Virus record (IMG/VR): IMGVR_UViG_3300027374_000001
Reading direction: 5' to 3' (one strand)
Source: a virus
Lineage: Duplodnaviria; Caudoviricetes
Length of the DNA: 64,000 nucleotides
Shown: in pieces, positions 1,313 through 2,920 of the stretch
Layout: the number at the start of each line of letters is the position of its first letter
Position numbering within the stretch: the first letter of the stretch is position 1
Made by a program: the position numbers and the translations under genes
Notes under the pieces: generated by a model
Seen by the model: only the letters and a program-made list of their open reading frames with translations
The model's database searches: none
Told to the model about the DNA's origin: nothing

Positions 1313-1387
1313 TAAGGAGAAAAAATAATCCGGGTGCCGGATTACCGACACCCAGAAATAATAAGGAAACCAAAAACCCGATTTCGA

Positions 1388-1462
1388 TGGGCCATATAGG
1401 ACTCGAACCTATGACCGACCGGTTATGAGCCGGTTGCTCTAACCAAGCTGAGCTAATGGCCC
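1388..1462 (-). tRNA. tRNA-Ile2 (anticodon CAT, lysidine type; elongator Met less likely)
   Basis: GGGCCATTAGCTCAGCTTGGTTAGAGCAACCGGCTCATAACCGGTCGGTCATAGGTTCGAGTCCTATATGGCCCA forms a cloverleaf; body resembles Bacillota tRNA-Ile(CAU); no encoded CCA. Confidence 0.9.
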
Positions 1463-1824
1463 GGGTTAAGATCGCCAACGTATGCTAACTGCATCTGCTG
1501 TTGCCTCTCTCGGCGAGCTATATCTCAGACTCTTTTCTTTTGATTCAGTGCTGAGTCTTACACATTACCATTCAATTACCGCCACTTGCGGAGCAGGTGT
1601 TAACACTTACACTGCGATTCTCTTTCGGAGCGAGCTCTAACCCCAATCGCTACACGATTAACACTCATTACATTTTGGTATAGCACTGCTGTACTCTAAC
1701 CGCCATAGCCGCACCCTGCATTCTACGCAGATACTGCCGGCTTTTCTTAGCGGCCGTGCACCATAGGCCGGTATCGTTACTGCCCCCCAGCAATTACCGA
1801 CAACGATTCGGCAGAGATTAACCC
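1463..1824 (-). ncRNA. putative large structured non-coding RNA between two tRNAs
   Basis: GC-rich island; ends pair (GGGTTAA/TTAACCC); many internal stems; 3' end abuts the tRNA-Ile 5' end; no credible ORF. Confidence 0.65.
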
Positions 1825-1835
1825 ACTCAGCCGAA

Positions 1836-1907
1836 CTGGGCATATTGGATTCGAACCAACGAATTCAGGAGTCAAAGTCCCGTGCCTTACCTCTTGGCGA
1901 ATGCCCA
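1836..1907 (-). tRNA. tRNA-Gln (TTG)
   Basis: TGGGCATTCGCCAAGAGGTAAGGCACGGGACTTTGACTCCTGAATTCGTTGGTTCGAATCCAATATGCCCAG forms a cloverleaf with U1-A72, typical of tRNA-Gln. Confidence 0.93.
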
Positions 1908-1980
1908 TTATTAGCACTATGCTTTATTTTCTATCAATTATATGTATAACTATTTTTATTTTACTACAATTATAAATAAA

Positions 1981-2007
1981 AGAGGGACAGCATATTTCTG
2001 TCCCTCT
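1981..2007 (-). terminator. intrinsic terminator
   Basis: AGAGGGACAG/CTGTCCCTCT stem flanked by T-rich tracts. Confidence 0.7.
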
Positions 2008-2016
2008 TCCTTTTTG

Positions 2017-2463
2017 TTAACCTTCGATTATCAGATCTTCTAATTTTCCTGCACAATTTTTATTATTAAGCATTAACCGGAATAAGAATCCTTCGCTGTC
2101 TTTGACAGGTTTGCGGTCTTCAAAATCCAAAACCGTAATATCGTTTAGCCCAAGTAAATTAATTTTCTTACATGGATTTATGCGCAGAACTCCAAAAGGT
2201 TTTCCATAAAAAGTGTCTACAACGTTAATTGTAACCGACCCAAGGATGCTAATGCTGTCTCCTTTAGCCGAAGGATTGTTTTCACTAACCCGACTGCTGA
2301 TACTATCGATTGATCTCTTTGATGCCAATGAGTAGAAAATAATATCGGTCTTTAAGCCCGTAAGGATATGCCTACATTCGAGTTTCACCTTGATCTTTCC
2401 AAAAAATCTACCTCTCTTAATGCTAAGCTTAGTTCTTGTTGTGTTATACATACCATGAATCAT
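2017..2463 (-). CDS. hypothetical protein
   Basis: 148-aa ORF with AAGGAG SD. Confidence 0.7.
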   Translation of the reverse strand: MIHGMYNTTRTKLSIKRGRFFGKIKVKLECRHILTGLKTDIIFYSLASKRSIDSISSRVSENNPSAKGDSISILGSVTINVVDTFYGKPFGVLRINPCKKINLLGLNDITVLDFEDRKPVKDSEGFLFRLMLNNKNCAGKLEDLIIEG

Positions 2464-2485: not shown

Positions 2486-2920
2486 TTATTTTAATATGGT
2501 TACTAATTCTCCGTTTTCCTCCTTTAAAGAAATACTAAGAGTTGGATCTATTATCTCTCCATAGAATTCACTATGCATAAGAATTTCATTAGTAGAAATC
2601 CTTATTTTTGTAGATGCATACATAAACTTAAAATCTTCCATGGAAACGGACTTTGGGACAGGCCCATCGTTTAGCCTTACTTCGATTTTATTTATACCCA
2701 TAGTAGCACAAATAGTCATACATTTATTTTCTCTCAATGCCAAAACACTCTTAATTGTACTTGGATTTCCAGAAACAGCTATAACAATATCAAAAAATCC
2801 GGTAGATATAAATAATAAATTTTTACCATCATATTTTATTTCTTTAATCTTGCTTGCTGGTACCTTTATCATCTGTAATCTTACACTCCTTCGCATTAGT
2901 ATTATTCTATCCATTCCCAA
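2486..2920 (-). CDS. hypothetical protein
   Basis: 144-aa ORF in an operon-like run. Confidence 0.7.
   Translation of the reverse strand: MGMDRIILMRRSVRLQMIKVPASKIKEIKYDGKNLLFISTGFFDIVIAVSGNPSTIKSVLALRENKCMTICATMGINKIEVRLNDGPVPKSVSMEDFKFMYASTKIRISTNEILMHSEFYGEIIDPTLSISLKEENGELVTILK

Follow-up and report, generated by a model that had tools for sequence, protein, structure and literature searches.

What is the G+C-rich DNA that separates two tRNA genes in an otherwise AT-rich phage genome, and does it specify an RNA of its own? The question was raised by an earlier note on the window (the whole 64,000-nt stretch of IMG/VR virus record IMGVR_UViG_3300027374_000001 analysed here), which had proposed, from the letters alone, a structured RNA of ~360 nt released by tRNA processing. 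The compositional island on which that proposal drew is clear, since G+C content is 0.45–0.55 over positions 1400–1900 versus 0.28–0.40 in the flanks and 0.33 in the genome. A tRNA-Gln(UUG) gene (1836–1907, minus strand; ARAGORN, and the Rfam tRNA model at 60.5 bits) and a tRNA(CAU) gene (1388–1462, minus strand; ARAGORN and Rfam), neither with an encoded CCA, enclose an element of 373 nt (1463–1835, minus strand) that is ~50% G+C, has no open reading frame on the RNA strand and exists in conserved copies. Its 3' terminal base adjoins position +1 of tRNA(CAU), as the earlier note had stated; the note had placed the other limit at 1824 and so left out the first 11 nt after tRNA-Gln, which are counted in the 373 nt. 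It had likewise recognised both flanking tRNAs, and had named the second one tRNA-Ile; ARAGORN calls this tRNA Met, and alternatively it could be an Ile2 tRNA that carries lysidine. Throughout, element position p (el p) corresponds to window position 1836 − p, so that the RNA strand reads from 1835 to 1463.

The setting of the element is that of a self-contained tRNA unit. An intrinsic terminator with a 12-bp stem and a U run (1329–1356, minus strand) closes it downstream. On the other side, the interval 1908–2010 (minus strand) holds the terminator of the upstream gene (2010–1978, 13 bp) together with an AT-rich gap of 70 nt, and no terminator-like site was found between tRNA-Gln and tRNA(CAU). 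Because terminators lie on both sides and none lies between the tRNAs, we consider tRNA-Gln, the element and tRNA(CAU) to be one unit, in which an RNase Z site and an RNase P site would define the ends of the element; the suggestion that RNase P would set its 3' end is therefore retained. The promoter of the unit should be located in the 70-nt gap upstream of tRNA-Gln. Upstream of the tRNA unit, no sigma-70-like promoter was found and the AR9 consensus promoter motifs (PMC5312081) were absent. An upstream 19-mer considered as a promoter candidate showed no recurrence. K-mer counts are uninformative in AT-rich DNA, and a promoter motif proposed for another phage DNA was absent from the 64-kb window.

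Next to the unit lies a gene for a 148-aa protein without a family (2017–2463, minus strand), which is present only in element-bearing phages. In a collection of 5.8 billion proteins, the 148-aa protein, which has a basic N-terminus, was represented by only two clusters, all in element-bearing phages. It had no match in Pfam, PHROG or Atlas, and its AlphaFold model (pLDDT 37) did not give a usable fold. Considered as an RNA partner of the element, it yielded nothing usable, and what it has in common with the element is its distribution. The gene directly upstream of it (window 2486–2920, minus strand) is swapped among near-identical phages, with the same slot in L012–L033 encoding products of 83, 126, 128, 136, 140, 142 or 144 aa, which marks a hypervariable accessory slot beside the tRNA unit.

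The relatives of the flanking proteins identify the phage as an uncultured AR9-like jumbo phage. The closest cultured relatives are AR9, PBS1, Goe21 and Staphylococcus jumbo phages (~33% identity), and many metagenomic relatives were found on contigs of 225–270 kb. By walking out from the flanking proteins, we recovered the element complete in 17 fetched loci in addition to the window, from at least 15 samples (ENA, JGI and Logan), always between the same two tRNAs and in every case in near-identical AR9-like phages of ~230 kb. These copies comprise eight distinct full-length sequences of 373–379 nt, plus one more L013-like variant, and fall into only three lineages (window-type, L014-type, which carries a 6-nt duplication, and L013-type); the locus L015 is an apparent recombinant. 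No homologue was found by blastn against 50,697 GenBank phages, by exact-pattern scans of IMG/VR with five patterns (the single match, L037, is a chance one within a coding region) or by scans of JGI metagenome contigs and of GTDB genomes with one pattern each. BLAST against 401 Lachnospiraceae and 399 scored Clostridia genomes returned only short chance matches inside genes. Three cultured AR9-like phages contained no DNA like the element, and each of them has one tRNA or none.

In other relatives the same tRNA junction is occupied differently. The sister clade represented by L003 (75% identity in the 235-aa neighbouring protein) carries a 161-nt GC-rich insert there (L003:5222–5382, plus strand), which folds as a closed multi-branch structure (z −2.56; 1 of 200 shuffles) and has no Rfam match. 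Kinship of this insert with the element was rejected, as the local alignment score was the same as the shuffle mean. From its sequence, the L003 insert is a possible second tRNA-embedded ncRNA. In the distant relatives L005 and L010 the junction holds AT-rich spacers of 112 and 57 nt, respectively, with a terminator-like hairpin. The unrelated insert in L003 and the short AT-rich spacers in L005 and L010 indicate that the element is dispensable for this type of phage, while the presence of a different structured insert in L003 suggests that the tRNA-Gln/tRNA(CAU) junction is a cargo slot.

Several further features of the related contigs were recorded. The start of L011 (1–967), a 252-kb contig from a related phage, is made up of bacterial 23S rRNA sequence (497 nt) and of tRNA-Asn, tRNA-Glu and tRNA-Thr genes. 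The 'Asn-Glu-Thr-Met' tRNA array that results was discarded as almost certainly an assembly chimera, joined at the CAU tRNA via shared tRNA sequence; breaks within tRNA(CAU) are also seen in Logan contigs from the same group of phages. The rRNA–tRNA spacer of L011 matches a Lachnospiraceae faecal MAG (JBGVOL010000026.1), which, as a sequence match, gives a weak hint of Lachnospiraceae as the host lineage. Upstream of the tRNA unit, L003 encodes a 284-aa metallo-beta-lactamase-fold protein (L003:2470–3324, plus strand) with a precomputed match to Anti-Pycsar Apyc1 (PF23023), a match that points to counter-defence cargo near the tRNA unit in at least one relative; window-type phages do not have this Apyc1-like protein. 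In the distant relative L036, gene calling splits the tubulin (PhuZ-like) gene, which encodes 387 aa in one piece in L034 and L035, into parts of 64 and 324 aa that lie ~450 nt apart (L036:11214–12830, plus strand), and the split may reflect an intron or other insertion. Finally, the ribonucleotide reductase large subunit of L005 (171–2918) shows a faint intein-splicing Pfam match and has 915 aa versus 909 aa in L010 (3704–6433).

To compare rates of change, the window was aligned with L015. The element differed at 22 of 371 aligned sites (6%), while in seven flanking genes third codon positions differed by 14–30% and first and second positions by 0–14%. Within the element, 8% of el 1–260 had changed, versus 1 of 113 sites (~1%) in el 261–373. 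L015 hardly differs from the window over the whole tract from el 261 through tRNA(CAU) and into the spacer beyond it, and recombination in L015 may have inflated the constraint seen in the 3' third, which carries ~5 changes in the non-recombinant L013/L055 type. Judged by these alignments, the element is constrained above the neutral rate. Insertions and deletions of 4, 2, 6 and 1 nt, which fall in a hairpin loop, at junctions and at the 3' end, rule out coding on the RNA strand, and no variant has an open reading frame of ≥25 aa on that strand, in agreement with the description of the element in the earlier note as non-coding. A 61-codon frame at 1658–1843 was rejected, as its start lies within tRNA-Gln and the 4-nt insertion in L013-type copies throws it out of frame.

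Folding of the whole element gave a minimum free energy (MFE) of −118 kcal/mol on the tRNA strand versus −97 kcal/mol for the complement, a gap of 21 kcal/mol. Relative to dinucleotide shuffles, the whole element had a z-score of −0.90 (18 of 100 shuffles were equally good) and its complement one of −2.0. When domains were scored separately, z was −2.70 for el 1–69, where the MFE and centroid structures coincide, −0.50 and −0.37 for two middle pieces, and −2.16 for el 271–373. The molecule as a whole is therefore unexceptional by this measure, and only its two terminal domains outdo their shuffled controls. The predicted 5' domain (el 1–69; 1767–1835, minus strand) consists of a UUCGGC...GCCGAA hairpin with GGGUUAA in its loop and a second, two-tier hairpin with a GGGGG loop, and the variants keep pairs 1:29, 36:68 and 41:63. 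It is followed (1700–1766, minus strand) by a variable hairpin (el 70–82) and a long irregular arm (el 83–136) whose tip has a 5-bp stem and a 7-nt loop; in the L013-type, a 4-nt insertion and two substitutions turn the imperfect variable hairpin into a perfect CUAUG/CAUAG one. A central multi-branch domain (el 156–270; 1566–1680, minus strand), closed by UACCA/UGGUA, would contain a GAAA/GGAA loop and an internal repeat. The 3' domain (el 271–373; 1463–1565, minus strand), which is the most conserved, comprises a hairpin with an A-rich loop, a 10-bp helix (AGCUCGCCGA/UUGGCGAGCU) and a UUAACCC tail.

This tail is complementary over 7 nt to the GGGUUAA loop of the 5' hairpin, so that the terminal complement described in the earlier note is indeed present. 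In our model the two ends may pair loop-to-tail or may alternatively extend into a 16-bp closing helix, and the variants do not discriminate between these arrangements. The internal stems that the note had picked out by eye fared unevenly. Three are compatible with the variants, namely GCGAUU/AAUCGC, in which a C to U change gives a G·U pair, the GUGUUAAC hairpin, which shows a double change from G-C to A-U, and AGACUC/GAGUCU, which is invariant. By contrast, AUCGUU/AACGAU and CGGCC/GGCCG are broken in the L013 lineage, the former also competing with a better-supported hairpin, and the GCC-GAGAGA-GGC stem is doubtful because it competes with the 10-bp helix.

Base pairing across the copies was assessed with a 113-pair model built from single-sequence folds, RNAalifold and the variants, part of which was drawn with the variants in view, and which was counted on eight sequences. 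In this model 94% of cells were paired, versus 27–48% when partners were slid by 1–3 columns. One-sided changes kept the pair in 15 pairs, including 36:68, 41:63, 95:128, 143:152 and 144:151 and, in the central domain, 169:260, 171:258, 173:256, 176:253 and 188:220. The central domain also has the sole double change, G230-C239 to A-U, the partner of which is ambiguous (230:239 or 194:239) since G194 changes as well. Two mismatches of the window-type are repaired in the L013-type, in which the 4-nt loop insertion accompanies the perfect CUAUG/CAUAG stem. Conversely, ~6 changes break pairs of the model, among them C255A, a singleton that is absent from the sister contig L055. The helix el 278–283/304–309 was scored one column off in the pair count; it is invariant, and change counts are unaffected. 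We estimate that ~76% of the substitutions at paired positions preserve pairing, versus ~56% expected for random transitions, figures that come from three lineages and a partly hand-drawn model, and the pairing score, which also reflects three lineages, was equalled in 18 of 500 runs of the shuffle control. As an internal yardstick, the T stem of tRNA-Gln has a clean compensatory change between the same lineages. With only three lineages and one double change, covariation is weak, and the pairing counts for the modelled structure are suggestive of a maintained fold rather than proof of one.

The predicted structure offers some leads to the architecture of such an RNA. In one predicted helix, GCUAAG (el 85–90) lies opposite CUAUGGC (el 128–134), and both are invariant in all copies. 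The two strands match the 11-nt GAAA-tetraloop receptor, which has the consensus CCUAAG/UAUGG (bioRxiv 10.1101/2024.03.11.584472), at 10 of 11 positions; in a post hoc test, this receptor-like arrangement occurred once in 64 kb versus 0.01 expected. The candidate tetraloop at el 210–213 is GAAA, but GGAA in the L013-type, and may belong to a pentaloop. Part of the element is also duplicated internally, in degenerate form and at a period of 59 nt: GUGYRGC..GGUUAGAG is found at el 122 and el 181, each time followed by AGUGUUAA. Both GGUUAGAG(C) motifs equal the D-loop of the neighbouring tRNA. Local alignments of the element with tRNA(CAU) and tRNA-Gln did not rise above shuffles (p 0.15 and 0.39, respectively), and the tRNA model had no match inside 1463–1835 at E ≤ 10. 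A tRNA or an array of tRNA pseudogenes was accordingly rejected, and a tRNA-derived origin of the element is noted in passing only. In addition, the element RNA contains the palindromes GAGCUC, GUGCAC and GUUAAC; self-complementary loops hold GOLLD and OLE oligomers together (PMC12286853), and the palindromes recall these by analogy, as a lead only.

These features have to be weighed against explanations in which no RNA product matters. The element could be a transcribed spacer without function, made of captured or duplicated sequence such as decayed tRNA-like pieces, that is discarded after processing. Such a spacer would fit the plasticity of the site, which measures 57, 112, 161 or 373 nt in relatives, as well as the narrow distribution, the whole-molecule z-score of −0.9, the degenerate 59-nt-period repeats with their tRNA D-loop motif, and the weak covariation. 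We nevertheless regard it as unlikely, since divergence in the element is 3–20 times slower than at third codon positions nearby, its indels avoid helices, and its similarity to tRNA is neither significant by alignment nor detected by the tRNA model at E ≤ 10. Conservation by itself cannot separate RNA from DNA, and a DNA-level element (origin iterons, or a packaging or recombination site) bound by protein as dsDNA would account for slow divergence together with the direct repeats (a 21-nt unit present twice at 59-nt spacing, AGTGTTAA twice and CGGTAATTG twice) and the palindromes GAGCTC, GTGCAC and GTTAAC. That a DNA site is all there is here seems very unlikely to us: the element is embedded in a transcription unit of tRNAs that has no terminator ahead of tRNA(CAU), there is no turn in GC skew at the element, the changes are biased to keep G·U-tolerant pairs on the tRNA strand, and the folding energy differs between strands by 21 kcal/mol. 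A MITE-like origin, for which the 7-bp terminal inverted repeat had been considered, was rejected, as target duplication is lacking and a further copy was found neither in the window nor in 800 genomes.

An RNA or protein of a more familiar kind also has to be considered. At gathering thresholds, Rfam 15 matched only the two tRNAs in the whole 64-kb window; with lax filters and a limit of E ≤ 10, the interval 1300–2000 (701 nt) gave the two tRNAs and chance matches on them; the families covered include RNase P A/B, tmRNA, 6S, SRP, group I/II introns, ROOL, GOLLD, OLE, HEARO and self-cleaving ribozymes. ARAGORN found no tmRNA in the window, and the element has neither a T-arm-like 3' end nor a tag ORF. 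The absence of RNase P and tmRNA signatures reported in the earlier note is thus borne out, and the covariance models give the element no known-family identity. The note's wider claim of a novel ncRNA class stands in so far as no curated family matches; the status of a class is not supported, as the element occurs in a single narrow clade of phages, all uncultured, and the sister clade has an unrelated insert in its place. The profiles might have missed a highly diverged representative of a known family (RNase P RNA, tmRNA, a group I intron or GOLLD/ROOL). The element is as large as bacterial RNase P RNA and has complementary ends, there are look-alikes by eye (AAGAAAAGCCGGC versus GAGGAAAGUCCGGGC, and GGGUGCGG..GGUUAGAG versus GGGUGCGGUAAGAG), a hairpin with its flanking receptor resembles group I P6, and the conserved 3' and variable 5' parts resemble GOLLD (PMC12286853). 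With no Rfam match even at E ≤ 10 under lax filters and no tmRNA by ARAGORN, we hold this to be highly improbable. RNase P RNA contains the near-invariant CR-I (GAGGAAAGUC) and CR-V (ACAGAA), which form the P4 pseudoknot. The best CR-I look-alike in the element, AAGAAAAGCC, becomes AAGAGGAGCC in L013/L015, a change from AAAA to AGGA between close relatives that a real motif would not tolerate, and the complementary P4 strand is absent near the 3' end of the element, so that identity with RNase P RNA was rejected. Resemblances by eye to a group I intron, a T-box and SRP were also rejected, and the element interrupts no gene, which leaves nothing to be spliced. This leaves a 52-aa protein encoded on the opposite strand (1482–1640, plus strand), the frame for which is open in 8 of 8 variants, with ~7 of 13 changes synonymous. 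We find such a protein scarcely credible: the frame has no Shine-Dalgarno sequence, unlike neighbouring genes, it runs antisense within a tRNA operon, and gene callers skipped it on every contig. An open frame of 52 codons is expected by chance at 50% G+C with few substitutions, and the synonymous excess is not significant given transition bias (our estimate, p ~0.1). The 52-codon frame probably arises from the combination of 50% G+C with low divergence.

The explanation that we favour, and consider probable while leaving real room for doubt, is that the element is a functional, tRNA-processed, folded ncRNA gene of ~373 nt, co-transcribed with the two phage tRNAs. It is probably restricted to this clade and a new sequence family of unmatched Rfam identity. 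Its position and strand, its non-coding nature, its slower-than-neutral divergence and its lack of a known family are observed; we infer its transcription, processing, fold, stability and any function from the DNA. The steps of its maturation would be those of established tRNA maturation. The unit would be transcribed as tRNA-Gln–element–tRNA(CAU). RNase Z would cut after the discriminator of the CCA-less tRNA-Gln, where the trailer starts with UU, to create the 5' end of the element, and RNase P would cut at +1 of tRNA(CAU) to create its 3' end, freeing a 373-nt RNA. The 5'-terminal hairpin, and the UUAACCC tail paired to the GGGUUAA loop, would shield both ends from exonucleases. During infection, the freed RNA might then bind a protein or itself and serve in trans as a structured scaffold or decoy. 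The repeated motifs, the module that resembles a receptor, and the examples of ROOL and GOLLD incline us to a scaffold or decoy acting in trans rather than to an antisense RNA; complementarity of the element to the rest of the window did not extend beyond 12 nt. Any particular role is far less probable than the existence of the ncRNA.

A more elaborate version of this ncRNA can be imagined, which we put forward tentatively as possible. The element would be an ornate RNA, so far undescribed and found only in one clade of AR9-like jumbo phages of the gut, cut by RNase Z and RNase P and folded via a tetraloop–receptor contact and an end-to-end pseudoknot, and it would either self-assemble like ROOL and GOLLD or serve as decoy to a host factor reading tRNA-like features. 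On this view the tRNA-Gln/tRNA(CAU) slot would generally take up interchangeable phage RNAs as cargo, a part of this version that draws on the unrelated 161-nt structured RNA of the sister clade in the same slot.

If the ncRNA is real, it would be a compact addition of ~370 nt to the few function-unknown phage RNAs in tRNA operons (T4 RNA C/D, ROOL and GOLLD), with a clean maturation logic in which tRNA-processing enzymes set both ends. In these jumbo phages of the gut, the tRNA-Gln/tRNA(CAU) junction would be a site at which structured RNAs are swapped, and thus a natural experiment on their role. Its small size would ease structure determination and deletion tests relative to larger ornate RNAs. 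Were the element only a spacer, the finding would be an ordinary one.

Among known RNAs, bacterial RNase P RNA and tmRNA are comparable to the element in their similar length, complementary 5' and 3' ends and association with tRNA biology. The element differs from both in that Rfam and ARAGORN give no match, the look-alike motifs vary, and a T-arm-like 3' end and tag ORF are lacking. Closer in position are T4 RNA C and RNA D (the stable 'species 1 and 2' RNAs), which are ~120–140 nt in length, are encoded among the clustered tRNA genes of T4 and arise by maturation of tRNA precursors. Like the element, they are phage-encoded non-tRNA RNAs, and they are its closest analogues by position and maturation. 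They are shorter than the 373-nt element and belong to another phage lineage and host phylum, and the two are likened by position, not by sequence. RNA C and RNA D are expressed late, and their function is still unknown (PMC9697503). ROOL and GOLLD are found near phage tRNA islands, are also of unknown function, and have self-complementary loops that mediate homo-oligomers; in GOLLD the 3' region is conserved and the 5' region variable, one member adjoins a Met-tRNA, and many members exceed 800 nt (PMC12286853). The element resembles ROOL and GOLLD as a tRNA-associated phage sequence that also has GAGCUC, GUGCAC and GUUAAC palindromes in its predicted RNA. It differs in having no Rfam match at E ≤ 10, in its occurrence in one narrow clade and in being shorter at 373 nt, ROOL as well being longer than this. 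By the tests available, the element is a new sequence family that lies outside T4 RNA C/D, ROOL and GOLLD.
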